Assembly: GCA_048938855.1 (NCBI GenBank)
Contig: JBHLLT010000009.1
Span: forward strand, 43,955 to 107,954
Direction: 5' to 3'
DNA: 64,000 nt
From: Promethearchaeota archaeon
GTDB lineage: Archaea > Asgardarchaeota > Lokiarchaeia > Sigyniarchaeales > SOKP01
Under the pieces are notes generated by a model. The model was not told where the DNA came from and made no database searches. It saw nothing but the letters and a program-made list of their open reading frames with translations. The position numbers were made by a program, and so were the translations under genes. This document shows, piece by piece, positions 1-25,367 of the stretch (its first letter is position 1; the number at the start of each line of letters is the position of its first letter).

Positions 1-372
1 TTAGTCTCTACAATAGATAATTACAAAATCGAATACACGATTCCACTTACTACTTCAAACTGCCCCTTTTGTAATTCACATCCAATGAAATTCATAAATG
101 CAAAGACTAAAAGATTTTTAGTCTGTTCTGATGATAACTGTAAGCAGTTTCTATCATTACCTAAAAATGGAAAATTAGAATTACTAGATTCAACTTGCTC
201 AATTTGTAGCTTTAATCTATTTAGAGTATCTCTAAAAAGAAATAATAAACTTTATAATTATTATTTATGCCCTAAATGCTGGAATGAGGGTTTGAATGAT
301 AAGTCAGGAAAGGGATTTTGTTCAAATTGTGAAGAATTTAAAATTTTTAAGGGCAAATGTATAAGAAAATAA
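1..372 (+). CDS. DNA topoisomerase type IA (Topo III-like), C-terminal zinc-finger region; 5'-truncated by window edge
   Basis: Frame is open from base 1 (LVSTIDNYKIEYTIPLTTSNCPFCNSHPMKF...). Repeated Cys pairs CPFC, CSDDNC, CSIC, CPKC, CSNC and LSLPKNGKL resemble Top3-type C-terminal Zn ribbons. Confidence 0.7.
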   Translation, partial: LVSTIDNYKIEYTIPLTTSNCPFCNSHPMKFINAKTKRFLVCSDDNCKQFLSLPKNGKLELLDSTCSICSFNLFRVSLKRNNKLYNYYLCPKCWNEGLNDKSGKGFCSNCEEFKIFKGKCIRK

Positions 373-381
373 AATAGTCTT

Positions 382-720
382 CTAAAAGTAATATTTTGAA
401 TCAAAACGGTATGCTGCTCTTGTTAATCCCACGTAATTATCATTTAGTTTATAAAGCATTTTTCCATTTACAATCTTTTTTTGTAGATAATTGTTTTTTA
501 TATAATGATTCAATGATGAAACCATGGTACCCAAAGTAACAGCCCCTATAAATTCATGTTGCTTTTTTGTAACTCTTATCAATTCTAACTCAGAATGCCA
601 CTGTCCATCTAGAAGTGCCATTAATATTTCATTTTTTATAGGAGTTGTGATATCTTTTATTTTATTAAATAAGTTAGAGTAGTTGGGTTTATAGAATGGA
701 TTTTCTTCAAAATCTTCCAT
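382..720 (-). CDS. Small winged-helix DNA-binding protein (putative)
   Basis: 112 aa; pattern IKNEILMALLDGQWHSELELIR...YLQKKIVNGKMLYKL fits a wHTH with a beta-wing. Confidence 0.5.
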   Translation of the reverse strand: MEDFEENPFYKPNYSNLFNKIKDITTPIKNEILMALLDGQWHSELELIRVTKKQHEFIGAVTLGTMVSSLNHYIKNNYLQKKIVNGKMLYKLNDNYVGLTRAAYRFDSKYYF

Positions 721-838: not shown

Positions 839-1960
839 TTATAGTAAATTTGGTGGTATTCCTTCATTATAATATTTCGCACGTGTGATCCAATTTTGAG
901 AAAATTCAGGGATCATTGCTAATATTGAACCACCAATCCAGACAGAAAAAGTTCGCTCCATTGGAGCAATAATCCGGACTCCAAGATTTTTCTTTTTCCT
1001 TCTAGCAAGTTCTAATTCTAACTCCTGATAAATACGAGCTTTTAAATTCGGAAACATGGAGGAACCTCCTGAAAGAAAAATGTTGTTTAACAGTTCTGGA
1101 CGAATGTCCAAATCACATGATTCAATTACATCCATGATTGCGACATGTAATGAATCTTCTTCTAACTCAGAGGATGGTTTAAACAATAGTTCTGGAACAA
1201 CAAATCGCTCTTTATTAAGTGAAATTGTAGAACCATCAGGTAAAGAATATTCTTTTTCATATTGTTCACTGCGTTTTAAATCTTCATTATAATCTAATGA
1301 AACAAAGCATGCTTTTTCTTTTAAAACTCTAACCAATTCTCTGCGTATTGAAGAATCAACAGACCATCCAATTGATTCCAACACTTGTTCCATATAACGA
1401 GTTAATACTCTTCCCCCTGTATCTAAGATCCTAACGGCATGCCCTAATTTATATCCCTCATATAATGGAACTATTCTTGTATTACTATCCCCAATCTCTA
1501 CAATTAGGCCAGTTTGGAAACCCCCAGAATATAATGTTAACATTGAATCTAACACCGGATAAAAAGCCATACATTGATATCGTTCTAAAAATAATTCAAA
1601 TATTTTTTCTAAATCTTTATGCGGAAATAACGGATGTACAGCAAATAATACATTAACAAGTGTTGGATCCACTCTTAAATTATAAAAGATATAGTCAATT
1701 ATATTTGCCAAATGAGTCCAATCTACTACAATTCCTTTCTCAATTGGATGGAAAATCTTATACAATCCGATTGATTGAATCTCATCTCCTACATAAGTCT
1801 CATCTTCACGAGACGCTTTACCACTATAATTAACACCAACATCTTGATATTTAGGTTTACCAACCATTGTCAGGAATACTTGAGAGGGCGTATCTTCGCC
1901 TGCAAATCCAATTTTTGTTGAAAACTGCCCAATATCAAGAACAACTGTAAGATTTCCCAT
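839..1960 (-). CDS. Actin-family protein (divergent Asgard actin / actin-related protein)
   Basis: 373 aa with actin motifs: VVLDIGQFSTKIGFAGED (phosphate-1), HPIEKGIVVDW, GLIVEIGDSNTRIVPLYEG (phosphate-2), LKEKACFVSLDY, YSLPDGSTI, ERFVVPELLF, NIFLSGGSSMFP, SVWIGGSILA. Confidence 0.95.
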   Translation of the reverse strand: MGNLTVVLDIGQFSTKIGFAGEDTPSQVFLTMVGKPKYQDVGVNYSGKASREDETYVGDEIQSIGLYKIFHPIEKGIVVDWTHLANIIDYIFYNLRVDPTLVNVLFAVHPLFPHKDLEKIFELFLERYQCMAFYPVLDSMLTLYSGGFQTGLIVEIGDSNTRIVPLYEGYKLGHAVRILDTGGRVLTRYMEQVLESIGWSVDSSIRRELVRVLKEKACFVSLDYNEDLKRSEQYEKEYSLPDGSTISLNKERFVVPELLFKPSSELEEDSLHVAIMDVIESCDLDIRPELLNNIFLSGGSSMFPNLKARIYQELELELARRKKKNLGVRIIAPMERTFSVWIGGSILAMIPEFSQNWITRAKYYNEGIPPNLL

Positions 1961-2089
1961 GCCTAAAGATTTCAGAATTTAATTTATGATAATTACCCTA
2001 AATAACTATATCTAATATACTATTTTAATTTTTAAAAAATACTAATAAAGCTTTGGGTAAAAATAAAAAGAATAAAAATCTTTAGGTTT

Positions 2090-2782
2090 TTATTCTCCTC
2101 TCATGATCTTCTTCAAACGATTTAACTCATCTAACATTTCATCTCGAAGAGAACTCAATCCTCCACCGGCTTTTGGAGCAACTCCGCCTGTTGCAGGTGC
2201 AGGAGCTGGTGCAGGAGGTCCGGGTCGTTTTGCAAATGCTGGCGCTGCTGGTGGTCCAGCACTTGGAGCTTTAGGGGGACCCGCGCCAGGAGGTGCACTG
2301 GGAAGCCCACCACTAGGTGGCAATTTTGGAGCCGGAGGTAAAGTAGGTTTTTTAGGTGGTCCACCACCACTTGGGGGCGCAGTAGGAGGCATTGCTTTTA
2401 TCGGAGGCCCTGTACCAGGAGGTTTAGGAGCAGAAGGAGGCCCACCACTTGGAGGTGCTGGGGCTGCGGGAATAGAAACAGTAGGCGCTGCAGTAGGAGT
2501 TGAAGTAGGTGTTCCACTACTTAATAAAGAGAATAAAGTACTAGCTGCGGCAGTCTTGGCAGTATCACTGCTTGGGGTGACTATTTTTTTAGAGGAAGTA
2601 CTCACAGTTTGAACCTCTTCAACAACAGAGACTTCTTTCAAATCTTTTTGAGCTTTTGCCAATGATTTGATAAAATCATTTATTCCTTTTATTGTGTCCT
2701 CTAAATCATCAGATAGACTCGTGAGTCCTTTTTTCATAAAATTAATTACGCGTTCAATCTTTTTCTGTTCTTTTGAAACCAC
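2090..2782 (-). CDS. Proline-rich protein: N-terminal coiled coil, Pro-rich linker, C-terminal WH2-like helix + LKKI motif
   Basis: 230 aa, GTG start; helical N-terminal ~50 aa; long Pro/Gly/Ala-rich segment; C-terminus GGGLSSLRDEMLDELNRLKKIMRGE. Confidence 0.75.
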   Translation of the reverse strand: MVSKEQKKIERVINFMKKGLTSLSDDLEDTIKGINDFIKSLAKAQKDLKEVSVVEEVQTVSTSSKKIVTPSSDTAKTAAASTLFSLLSSGTPTSTPTAAPTVSIPAAPAPPSGGPPSAPKPPGTGPPIKAMPPTAPPSGGGPPKKPTLPPAPKLPPSGGLPSAPPGAGPPKAPSAGPPAAPAFAKRPGPPAPAPAPATGGVAPKAGGGLSSLRDEMLDELNRLKKIMRGE

Positions 2783-3046
2783 GTTCTTCTCAATTCCTCT
2801 AATGTTATTAAATAATTGATTAAAGTAAAAATTACTATTTATAATCTTTATATTTTTATTATATTAATATGTATTTATAATTTTATTCCATTCTTAATCA
2901 AGTCTATAAATCTAAATATTACGTAGATCTAGAAAAAACGTTAATTATTAAAAAACCTAAACTAATAATATTATATAACATATTTCATTAGTAAGTTTAA
3001 AATTATTAATATTTCAATTTTAAGAAATTAAAAAGGTTTGTATAAA

Positions 3047-3313
3047 ATGCCTAAGCGTGAACTGTTCATTAAACGGGTTTATGAAATTGTTAATGAGCTT
3101 AAAATCCCCCTAATCGATGAAAGAGTTTATGACAGTGTTAAATTCAATACAGGGGCAGCTGTTGCAGCTGTAATTTTCAGGTTTGAGGAAGATGAATCTG
3201 TAATCCGTGGATTTCTTGGTCTTGCTGAATATTTTCATACAGTTGTAATAAAGCGTAAGGATGAATTCTATATTCCCCACGCTTCCATTCTCTTCAGACT
3301 TATAAGTGCTTAG
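3047..3313 (+). CDS. Hypothetical small alpha/beta protein
   Basis: ORF 3038..3313 with more likely ATG at 3047 (MPKRELFIK); protein-like composition, followed by a T-rich tract. Confidence 0.6.
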   Translation: MPKRELFIKRVYEIVNELKIPLIDERVYDSVKFNTGAAVAAVIFRFEEDESVIRGFLGLAEYFHTVVIKRKDEFYIPHASILFRLISA

Positions 3314-22741: not shown

Positions 22742-23668
22742 ATGAATGAGCAGTTCCGTACTTTTCTGAAAAATAACAAAATCGATGAAGATACACTCCC
22801 TCGTAAAAATTGTTGTAACAATCCATTTATTGAATCTAGGGATGGGAATAAGGTTTGTTTGAACTGTGGGGTAATCTTCGAAAGAACTTATGTTGGAAAT
22901 GAGAGAAGGGCATATACAATTGAAGAGATACAGAATCGGCGTAGAACAGAGCCACGTTGGCGGGATTTTGGCCCTCGAACAATGCTTCCAACAACTAAAA
23001 CCGATAGTAAAGGTAAAAGTATTGGTGCAAAAGAACAAGCGCTTTTCTCTCGTCTTTCAAAAATTCAGAATTCACTAATATCAAGCATCGAAAGAAACTT
23101 TTGGGAAGCAAAACCAAAATTGAAGATGCTTACGTCAAAACTTAATGTGCCAGAATATATTGCAGAAACAGCATGGAAAATATATAGTTTAGTAGCTAAA
23201 AAGAAATTAACTATGGGAAGATCAATAAATGGTTTTATTTCGGGATCACTATATGCTGCTATTCGTGTTCATGATTTTCCACGGCTTTTAGATGAAATTT
23301 GTGAAGCATCACTAACACCTAGAAGAACTGTTCATAGAAGTCTAGCAATGATTATTCGTGAAGTATTACCTGAACTCAAGTTAAGATACCAGCCAATTAC
23401 GGCTGAAAGTTTAGTATTTCGTTTTGGTAATGAATTAGATTTACCAATTTCGATACAAAAAAATGCTATAAATATGTTAAAAGATGCTTCTAAAAATGGT
23501 TTGAAGCGAACTGGGAAAGATCCTAAAGGATTAGCCGCTGCATGTATATATATCGCTGCAAAAAATGGTGCAATTCGTAAAACTCAATCCAAAGTTGCTG
23601 ATGTAGCAAAGATTACCGAGGTCACGTTGAGATCTCGTGCTAAACAAATAAAAAGCAAATTAACTTAA
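22742..23668 (+). CDS. tfb: Transcription initiation factor IIB (TFB)
   Basis: Zn ribbon CCNN...VCLNCG, cyclin repeats with MGRSI and GKDPKGLAAACIYI, TQSKVADVAKITEVTLR. Confidence 0.92.
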   Translation: MNEQFRTFLKNNKIDEDTLPRKNCCNNPFIESRDGNKVCLNCGVIFERTYVGNERRAYTIEEIQNRRRTEPRWRDFGPRTMLPTTKTDSKGKSIGAKEQALFSRLSKIQNSLISSIERNFWEAKPKLKMLTSKLNVPEYIAETAWKIYSLVAKKKLTMGRSINGFISGSLYAAIRVHDFPRLLDEICEASLTPRRTVHRSLAMIIREVLPELKLRYQPITAESLVFRFGNELDLPISIQKNAINMLKDASKNGLKRTGKDPKGLAAACIYIAAKNGAIRKTQSKVADVAKITEVTLRSRAKQIKSKLT

Positions 23669-23674
23669 AACTTT

Positions 23675-24250
23675 TTAATCTTTTACATTTTTTTCTTGTT
23701 TTTCAGCTTCTTCTTGTAAGAGAGACCATTTTATACCAACAGCAGTGATACATAATCCAAGTAGTAAATAAAACGTATTCACTGAAAGAAAGAAAATCCA
23801 AAATAACGCAGCACTGTAGGAAGTAATTGTAGGACTGTAAAGAGCAGATTGAAACCGAATGGTGGTAAAAGTGGATGTGATTTTAGTCTTTCCTAACAAC
23901 ACTAAAAAATCCATTTTAACTAAACCAGCCAATAAAGCAACCATACCGATGATTATTATAAGTTTAGCTAATGCACTGCTTTCAATTTTCTTTTTTGAGG
24001 AGATTTTAAAAATGAAAATACCCAAAATTAAAAAACATACCATAGAAATAATCACAAATAACCATAATAATGTTCCCGAAAATGGAAATATAGTAGAGGA
24101 GTATACAAATTCAGATAACATTAAAATGTTCCCATCAAGAATAAAGGGAGTAAAATTCAATATTACTATATATGCTAATTCGATTATTGAAATAATGATA
24201 AATGTAGAACCTACAATTTCAAGAAATTTAAGAACTTTTTCGTATTTCAT
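23675..24250 (-). CDS. 4-TM membrane protein
   Basis: ORF track start 24361; ATG at 24250 (MKYEKVLK) is more plausible; four hydrophobic helices. Confidence 0.6.
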   Translation of the reverse strand: MKYEKVLKFLEIVGSTFIIISIIELAYIVILNFTPFILDGNILMLSEFVYSSTIFPFSGTLLWLFVIISMVCFLILGIFIFKISSKKKIESSALAKLIIIIGMVALLAGLVKMDFLVLLGKTKITSTFTTIRFQSALYSPTITSYSAALFWIFFLSVNTFYLLLGLCITAVGIKWSLLQEEAEKQEKNVKD

Positions 24251-24401
24251 ATTTAACACGTTGAAATTTTGTAAAAAAGCAAGAAAATTTTTTATGCAAT
24301 TATACTTATTATTGTTTTTGAAATTAATAAAAATTTTTAATATTAATGTTTTTTTTATCAATTTTATTTAAAAATAATTAATCTCCCATAATGATTTTAT
24401 A

Positions 24402-25367
24402 TTGAAAAAGCAAAAAAAGCTAGACACAGAAATAGCAAGCTGTTCTCATAAAAATATCAAACAAGATAGTGGATTTATCGTTTGCCAAGATTGTGGATTG
24501 ATCATGGAAGAAAATGTAGCATTTGAAAATACAGTATCAAGCAGTGAATACTTTGACGATTCACAGAGAGACTATGAGAGAAGAATTAAGATAGGTGATT
24601 CAAAAGCACTCCAAGATCCTATCATAAAAGAGAAATATGATCGTATTAAAACTCTAGAAAAATGGTTTAGAGATTATGAGTCTGATTTTACTGAACAGAA
24701 AAAGACAATTGAATTACTTAAAAGTCATGGAATCGGATTAAACATTGATAACGTTAGATATAAAGAGATTAAGGATAGATACCTGAAGTACAATAAATAT
24801 CATCGACATAATTATCAAAACATGGTGATAATTTTTCTTGCAATTGTATGGATGCAAATAAAAGATACTACAAACATTAGAATCGAGGATTTCATTAATA
24901 CTTCAAGAAGTCTAGGACACAAAATAAATAAAAAAATGTTAAACAATGCTATGTTAAAAATTAAGCGAACTGAAAAAATCTTCAAAGAAAAAAAAGGAAC
25001 TGTAGAATTAGAAAGAGAAATTAAAGGAAAAATTAAAATTGTCTTTCAAAAAGATTTAAACAACATTCCATATGAAAAAGTGCAAGAATTTTTTAATAAT
25101 CAGGTCGAATTTGAAAAAATAAAAATCGAAATGCAATTATTGGCAGATAAAATATTAAATAAAATAACATATCAGCAGATTCAGAGTCTTAATTATAAAG
25201 CCTTTACAGCGGGTTTAATCTATTATATATCGCAAACTTTGTCCAATAGAAAGATTTTTACGCAAAGTTTAGTTGAAAGTACTAGTAAATTTTCAAGTAC
25301 TACAATTAGAAAAAAATATCATTTCCTAAAAGATTTATTGGGAGATCCCCAGAATCTTAACCTCTGA
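24402..25367 (+). CDS. Divergent TFB-like protein
   Basis: N-terminal CSH...VCQDCG Zn ribbon; C-terminal AFTAGLIYYI...TQSLVESTSKFSSTTIRKKY resembles the TFB final cyclin-repeat HTH. Confidence 0.65.
   Translation: MKKQKKLDTEIASCSHKNIKQDSGFIVCQDCGLIMEENVAFENTVSSSEYFDDSQRDYERRIKIGDSKALQDPIIKEKYDRIKTLEKWFRDYESDFTEQKKTIELLKSHGIGLNIDNVRYKEIKDRYLKYNKYHRHNYQNMVIIFLAIVWMQIKDTTNIRIEDFINTSRSLGHKINKKMLNNAMLKIKRTEKIFKEKKGTVELEREIKGKIKIVFQKDLNNIPYEKVQEFFNNQVEFEKIKIEMQLLADKILNKITYQQIQSLNYKAFTAGLIYYISQTLSNRKIFTQSLVESTSKFSSTTIRKKYHFLKDLLGDPQNLNL

Follow-up and report, generated by a model that had tools for sequence, protein, structure and literature searches.

We know of no described mechanism for fastening Lokiactin filaments to the membrane around the cell body and its protrusions. 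Asgard actin seems to be regulated mainly by gelsolins and profilins (PMC13716822) and the only WH2-like elements reported from Asgard archaea are LKxV linkers within gelsolins (PMC9433394; 10.1101/2025.11.30.690169). Several described systems nonetheless provide points of comparison for the locus reported here. Arcadin-2 of Pyrobaculum, a regulator of crenactin encoded beside that actin homologue in the crenarchaeal arcade cluster, is built of a core and a small conserved C-terminal helix, joined by a flexible linker that is not conserved; it binds the crenactin groove at 31 nM, and the C-terminal helix alone binds this hydrophobic groove (PDB 5LY3; PMC5173319). WH2 proteins (WASP/WAVE, thymosin beta-4, Spire; PF02205) combine an amphipathic helix bearing a hydrophobic triad with a basic L-K-K-x element, often after Pro-rich sequence and in some cases in tandem arrays. 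The Lifeact/ITPKA-type filament-binding motif (SFM)—a short single helix anchored by V at P1, L at P4, F at P8 and E at P9—is a portable actin-anchoring module found on diverse proteins, sometimes repeated, and has been described as a late, convergent eukaryotic invention (PMC13364712). Asgard ESCRT-III proteins (Vps2/24/46) end in MIM1-like helices, charged and Leu-rich, that follow a disordered linker (PMC7240154), while the ZipA and CdvA tethers, for FtsZ and ESCRT-III respectively, link an anchor or coiled coil through a long Pro-rich spacer to a terminal element that recruits a cytoskeletal polymer. Here, we describe a gene, which we call X, from a 64,000-nucleotide stretch of a Promethearchaeota archaeon genome (GenBank assembly GCA_048938855.1, contig JBHLLT010000009.1, positions 43,955 to 107,954, forward strand; hereafter ‘the window’). 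X resembles each of these systems in part and represents an undescribed, pan-Asgard and very widespread adaptor family, of which we found no description in the literature searched.

The GTG start codon of X aligns with the M that its orthologues have in MVSKEQKK. It is a genuine gene rather than a chance open reading frame (ORF), as it has around 200 homologues, with best E-values down to 1e-103. GC content, at about 0.28 in the background, climbs to 0.48 at the locus because of the Pro, Gly and Ala codons of X. Its parts, in window coordinates, are as follows.

2090-2782, minus strand: gene X, 230 aa including its proposed coiled coil, proline-rich arm and docking helix (putative adaptor); the range includes the stop codon
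2627-2773, minus strand: N-terminal long helix (aa 4-52) predicted by AlphaFold2, with many positions invariant within Lokiarchaeia
2519-2563, minus strand: short conserved helix (aa 74-88), TLFSLLSSG, with the motif [L/I]-[F/W]-x-[L/F/V]-L-x-G
2162-2518, minus strand: proline-rich disordered arm (aa 89-207, about 120 aa) with GGPPKAP-like repeats
2315-2341, minus strand: arm island LPPAPKLPP, invariant in the Lokiarchaeial alignment
2222-2236, minus strand: arm island FAKRP, invariant in the same alignment
2093-2167, minus strand: C-terminal putative docking motif (aa 206-230; helix 208-228), conserved across families

An AlphaFold2 model, built with a 24-sequence alignment, gave a helix at residues 4-52 with a predicted local distance difference test score (pLDDT) above 90, a weak helix of low confidence (74-88), a disordered stretch (89-207) and a 21-residue C-terminal helix at 208-228 (pLDDT about 88), with no tertiary packing (predicted template modelling score, pTM, 0.22). 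Sequence and model together support the anatomy proposed in the first-pass annotation, namely an oligomerising helix, a Pro-rich arm and a C-terminal amphipathic helix. No Pfam family was found on the whole protein, its N-terminal 100 residues or its tail, beyond sub-threshold coiled-coil noise; the weak matches on the N-terminal helix are all of coiled-coil type, and this helix is likely to be an oligomerising stalk. The LFxLL helix motif at 74-88 is kept in the soluble (type A) form of X in Loki, Odin-type and f14 lineages, and full-length relatives occur in 107 of the 301 Asgard genomes sampled, including genomes outside Lokiarchaeia, some of them of Odinarchaeial size. The number of GGPPKAP-like repeats in the arm differs among orthologues. 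On the opposite strand, the 169-aa Gly/Ala/Pro-rich ORF at 2103-2612 (plus) is an antisense shadow of the arm and no gene.

It is the tail, ending in GGGLSSLRDEMLDELNRLKKIMRGE, that sets the family apart. Tail conservation had been chosen beforehand as a point on which the first-pass annotation could fall, and the tail proved nearly invariant in orthologues. Across 33 Lokiarchaeial homologues, 62-83% identical overall, the stretch GGGL[S/G]SLRDEML[D/E]EL[N/T]RLKKIMRG hardly changes; equally fixed are the N-terminal helix, TVSTSSK, TLF[S/N]LLS and LPPAPKLPP…FAKRP. The consensus of the wider family is [S/G]-L-[R/K]-x-E-M-[L/M]-x-E-[L/I]-x-R-[L/I]-K-x-[hydrophobic]-[M/F/I], within which L212, M216, E219, R222 and K224 never vary across Asgard classes and protein architectures, while the ‘LKK’ of X is replaced by IKE, IKG, LKS, LKR or LKA, followed by I, M, L, Y or F. 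The motif was detected in 258 of the 301 genomes (about 86%) and in 84 of 90 high-quality ones; among the 301, it was not found in families f19 (0/5 genomes) and f22 (0/7) or in five families represented by a single genome. A 30-column profile of the tail, searched against 1.84 billion representative proteins, matched just 73, with source labels spanning Loki-, Odin-, Thor-, Wukong-, Hermod- and Hodarchaeota. In its own genome, X was the sole significant match to the tail hidden Markov model (HMM), at 43 bits. Elsewhere in that genome, a 146-aa paralogue-like gene (contig C81, 70143-70580, plus strand, outside the window) repeats the layout of X, with a coiled coil, a Pro/Gly-rich arm and a C-terminal helix, SLRGAIMGELKQLFAKRQQGS; its diverged tail was missed by the tail HMM and a 209-aa coiled-coil gene precedes it.

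The motif is also modular. Its carriers include proteins in which a SHOCT-like coiled coil accompanies one to three transmembrane helices, polytopic membrane proteins (510-580 aa), proteins that begin with a Ras-family GTPase domain and have the motif at their end, and proteins labelled Hod- and Odinarchaeota in which two or three copies in tandem are followed by a conserved Cys4 element (C-x2-C-G…IPCC-x-C) and a globular domain at the C-terminus; the last two kinds are found among proteins P0128, P0169, P0177, P0131, P0162 and P0154. In membrane-anchored and soluble forms alike, the motif stands at the end of a Pro/Thr-rich arm, and FAK[RS] directly precedes it in the anchored forms as it does in X. 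The tail faces the cytosol in both, as the positive-inside rule indicates for the anchored forms and the absence of a signal peptide for the soluble one. Two further observations concern the carriers: protein P0165 fuses a transmembrane segment and an X-like part to a TIR domain; and rpiA, encoding ribose-5-phosphate isomerase A, adjoins single-transmembrane and polytopic carriers in five lineages (L046, L052, L053, L055, L094), suggesting that these carriers are positional orthologues.

We propose that X is one form of a set of pan-Asgard ‘proline-arm’ adaptors, each of which would combine an anchoring module, a flexible Pro-rich spacer and the 21-residue docking helix. In X, the anchoring module would be the long oligomerising helix, probably together with the 88-aa protein encoded next to it; elsewhere, one or many transmembrane helices or a Ras-like GTPase domain would take its place. 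The hydrophobic stripe L212, M216, L220, L223 and M227 would insert into a groove on an equally conserved cytosolic partner, and oligomeric or tandem display would make that binding multivalent. The candidate partner belongs to the actin family: it would generally be Lokiactin and, in the taxonomic family of X, also the actin paralogue that neighbours the gene there. On this proposal, the helix would occupy the barbed-end hydrophobic groove, in the manner of the arcadin-2 C-terminal helix on crenactin and of WH2 or Lifeact-type helices on actin, so that soluble and membrane-anchored forms might tether or recruit actin to a site or to the membrane. The identification of X as a docking adaptor for an actin-family groove is tentative; it nevertheless leads the candidates, ahead of another partner or self-association, then of Vps4's MIT domain and, last of all, of a literal WH2 factor. 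A more far-reaching version, in which the tail would be a pre-eukaryotic archaeal short linear motif for actin binding, portable on coiled-coil adaptors, transmembrane anchors, Ras-like GTPases and tandem arrays and coupling Lokiactin filaments to membranes and GTPase signalling, we regard as doubtful. If true, it would supply the first Asgard actin–membrane tether or recruiter beyond profilins and gelsolins, with a WH2/Lifeact-like action of independent origin. The occurrence of a near-invariant helix on the arms of membrane anchors, GTPases and oligomeric stalks, in genomes that include some labelled Hodarchaeales, makes it a testable candidate for the link between actin and membrane.

The case for actin draws in part on the neighbourhood of X, the features of which are given here.

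839-1960, minus strand: divergent actin paralogue of 373 aa, resembling an actin-related protein (ARP); Pfam Actin, 299 bits
1961-2089, minus strand: AT-rich spacer of 129 nt separating X from the actin paralogue; oligo-T runs closely follow the stop codon of X, and TATA-like stretches precede the ATG that comes next
382-720, minus strand: 112-aa protein with no Pfam family, third member of a family-specific block
3047-3313, plus strand: 88-aa protein (91 aa from an alternative start at 3038), divergent from X at a distance of about 265 nt

The first-pass annotation had placed X about 130 bp upstream of a co-oriented actin gene, which agrees with the 129 nt measured. This actin gene is a divergent paralogue, other than the genome’s Lokiactin: the genome holds three actin-family genes, the best being a Lokiactin-type copy on contig C79 at 23378-24490 (Pfam Actin, 441 bits), to which the gene beside X is about 40% identical. 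Relative to yeast actin, its nucleotide-site and catalytic residues show the changes S14Q, G15F, Q137D, D154E, G158S and H161R, and its barbed-end groove several more (T148Q, T351E, M355N); its sequence has the look of an ARP rather than of a canonical actin that hydrolyses ATP and forms filaments. In the window’s taxonomic family, 27 of 30 loci, from several genera, have the paralogue immediately downstream of X, while genes further upstream of X differ among these loci, a pattern that supports a link between X and actin. As for the notion of a dedicated pair of actin or Arp and regulator, the adjacency within this one family stands in its favour, but the exclusivity does not hold: in a sister family, the paralogue orthologues (51-58% identical) lie 44 and 70 kb from X and elsewhere there is no orthologue. 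Paralogue orthologues are confined to the same order; in f4, the Odin-sized genomes and f14, no actin gene was found within 5 kb of X and no paralogue orthologue was found, the best actin match to the paralogue being about 40-42% identical, which is the Lokiactin level. With the adjacency and orthology of the paralogue so limited and X so widespread, X is much older and more widespread than its neighbour.

Actin-fold proteins generally take helical peptides in a hydrophobic groove. A tail as conserved as that of X needs an equally conserved partner, and Lokiactin fits, being described as the most conserved Asgard actin homologue (PMC9834061). Phyletic profiles tilt slightly toward the actin toolkit: the motif was not found in seven families, five of which have no gelsolin match either but only two of which lack ESCRT-III, although the informative families are mostly represented by single or incomplete genomes. 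The resemblance to arcadin-2 extends to the whole layout and to a gene beside an actin homologue, yet X has a proline-rich arm and a different motif, adjoins an actin paralogue in one family only and has a groove binding that is predicted by analogy. No likeness in sequence between X and arcadin-2 was found, the 17-residue arcadin-2 peptide lying outside the PDB library with its 20-residue minimum. As for the SFM, L220, L223 and M227 match the hydrophobic spacing of P1, P4 and P8 in all members, a pattern generic for amphipathic helices; the f14 variant IKRIKEIFES fits, including the F-E pair at P8-P9. P9 is R in X, however, and Glu only in some lineages (e.g. f14 and L055), while L212, M216, E219, R222 and K224 fall largely outside the SFM core. 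ZipA and CdvA share the tether layout with X but no homology with its family, save for a single sub-threshold CdvA-like coiled-coil match, and the terminal element of ZipA is a folded domain, where that of X is a peptide.

Several observations count against actin as the partner. Outside one family, X is not near any actin gene and lies among genes of housekeeping function, including rpiA, S25e and genes for purine synthesis. Even in the window, X is probably transcribed separately from the actin paralogue, judging from the oligo-T runs and TATA-like stretches in the spacer, a weak argument because the whole genome is about 72% A+T. Five genomes tested from f19 and f22 all have a Lokiactin-type actin and no detectable motif, and f5, f10 and f17 have the motif without a gelsolin match. 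The hydrophobic pattern of the tail is generic for any amphipathic helix; a single-sequence search of the PDB with the tail gave no match, and a profile search returned GCN4 and M-protein zipper segments only, none of them significant. WH2 (PF02205) gave no match to the whole of X at E≤1 or to its last 30 or 50 residues at E≤10, in searches whose HMMER filters may discard very weak matches. Profilin hand-off along the arm is also doubtful, as the polyproline of VASP is reportedly not bound by the profilins of Loki and Odin (PMC8410842).

The WH2 result bears on the inference of the first-pass annotation that the tail is WH2-like and X a candidate WASP/WAVE/VASP-type regulator dedicated to the neighbouring actin. 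The WH2-type triad is indeed present, as M216-L217-x-x-L220, and conserved as M-[L/M]-x-E-[L/I]. LKKI, however, begins two residues (N-R) after L220 where WH2 has about five, and so comes three residues too early; it sits inside the single continuous helix predicted at 208-228, where the corresponding WH2 segment is extended; and neither the second K of LKK nor the fourth position is conserved across the family. The Pfam scan of X found no EVH1, WH1, GBD or SHD domain and no acidic CA/Trp region, the protein ending in …KKIMRGE. X is thus not a homologue of WH2 or WASP proteins as far as its sequence indicates, and the claim of a WH2/WASP-type regulator dedicated to the adjacent actin is only partly supported, in its anatomy rather than in its specific claims. 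The literal form of the idea, a nucleation or elongation factor with a true WH2 and a profilin-binding polyproline dedicated to the adjacent actin or Arp, can appeal to a similar architecture, to the adjacency kept within the family and to tandem motif copies such as WH2 nucleators have. Set against these are the failed WH2 membership tests, the missing companion domains and acidic region, the much greater age and spread of X relative to the paralogue, the altered nucleotide-site residues of that paralogue and the profilin finding already cited, and we consider it highly improbable.

A partner outside the actin family is a somewhat weaker contender than the actin groove, and on balance an unlikely one: the helix might dock on another conserved Asgard protein, for example in the small-GTPase/roadblock network, or pair with itself or with similar helices as a short leucine-zipper-like element, making X a scaffold unrelated to actin or ESCRT. 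Fusion of the motif to Ras-family GTPase domains and its presence alongside Cys4 and C-terminal globular domains speak for some such partner, as do a genomic context that is uninformative outside one family and a steadiest neighbour, the 88-aa protein, that has no clear fold match and is no cytoskeletal gene. That neighbour itself cannot be the receptor, however, since it was not found in lineages with only anchored forms. For self-pairing, M216-L220-L223-M227 has d-a-d-a spacing and the best PDB look-alikes, though non-significant, are GCN4 zipper segments (ARLKKL); yet two heptads are short for an autonomous zipper, and the invariant polar residues E219, R222 and K224, together with tandem copies on flexible linkers, better fit a peptide that lies in a groove. 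The other contender is the ESCRT machinery, with the tail as a MIM1-type MIT-interacting helix through which X and its anchored relatives would recruit or regulate the Vps4 ATPase. Here too the helix lies at the extreme C-terminus after a disordered linker, and both ESCRT-III proteins of the genome end in similar charged helices, …ELEKELNRLKSDE and …LKDEIDKLRKELEG, one of which has the hexapeptide ELNRLK in common with X. The tails of ESCRT-III proteins in other Asgard genomes take the form LExEIxKLK, LPPAPKLPP resembles an LPxxP stretch ahead of ESCRT-III tails, f19 lacks both ESCRT-III and the motif, and one membrane-anchored member has the CdvA-like coiled-coil match mentioned above, at 19.9 bits against a cut-off of 30. 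A hand-made C-terminal ESCRT/MIM1 pattern picked out X, the two ESCRT-III proteins and one junk ORF from 5763 ORFs, but was post hoc, and it was rejected once two profile tests had failed.

In those tests, the tail HMM scored an ESCRT-III tail at 7 bits (E=2, rank 5), and an HMM of 11 ESCRT-III tails from other genomes ranked the genome’s own ESCRT-III first (16.8 bits) and X 200th (1.1 bits). The MIM1 consensus is (D/E)xxLxxRLxxL(K/R); X departs from its strict form, with the register off by one in the N-terminal half, and has an additional invariant N-terminal half (L-R-x-E-M). Nor does the motif track ESCRT-III in its distribution: f22 (7/7 genomes) and four single-genome families have ESCRT-III without the motif, two genomes have the motif without ESCRT-III, and no ESCRT gene lies nearby in any lineage examined. 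The genome encodes a single true MIT domain, that of Vps4 (contig C70, 77389-77583). Taken with the likenesses above, these results leave Vps4 an improbable partner, less so than a literal WH2 factor. Should the partner of the tail prove to be something other than actin, the motif would still mark an uncharted pan-Asgard interaction hub.

Among the genes around X, that for the 88-aa protein is the steadiest genomic partner of soluble X. Within the family it adjoins X at 27 of 30 loci, and it does so too in f3, f4, f5 (Odin-sized genomes), f14, f21 and f23, making seven families overall; in the sister family, it lies 3 kb from X in genome G165 and 24 kb away in G213. Its distribution follows soluble X, and on the grounds already given it was rejected as a receptor for the tail. 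More likely, it would work with the N-terminal stalk or the LFxLL helix, in place of the membrane anchor used by other lineages. All of its 386 homologues are labelled ‘hypothetical’ and no Pfam family was found in the scan. AlphaFold2 predicts a confident fold (pLDDT 92.5, pTM 0.84) with the order alpha-beta-beta-alpha-beta-beta-beta, for which comparison with solved structures gave no clear match (Foldseek E≥0.3, best Z 4.5); look-ups in protein atlases gave no usable match for this protein or for the tail. Some genomes of the family (G030, G159, G019 and others) have two to four copies of the 88-aa gene, the extra copies standing alone in varied contexts with no motif-bearing neighbour.

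On the other side of X, the 112-aa gene follows the paralogue in L004-L007 and wherever the flank allows, but does not adjoin it in the sister family; the middle part of its product resembles a winged-helix or HTH segment. The window’s edge cuts into a topoisomerase IA gene, whose Cys-rich C-terminus, a zinc ribbon, occupies positions 1-372 (plus strand), and topoisomerase IA likewise follows the X block in L005 and L006. Outside the window, the short contigs C37 and C19 of the same genome have Arg/Pro/Ala-rich six-frame translations, pointing to a high GC content against the genome’s approximately 28%; they probably contaminate the bin, for which 7% contamination is listed.

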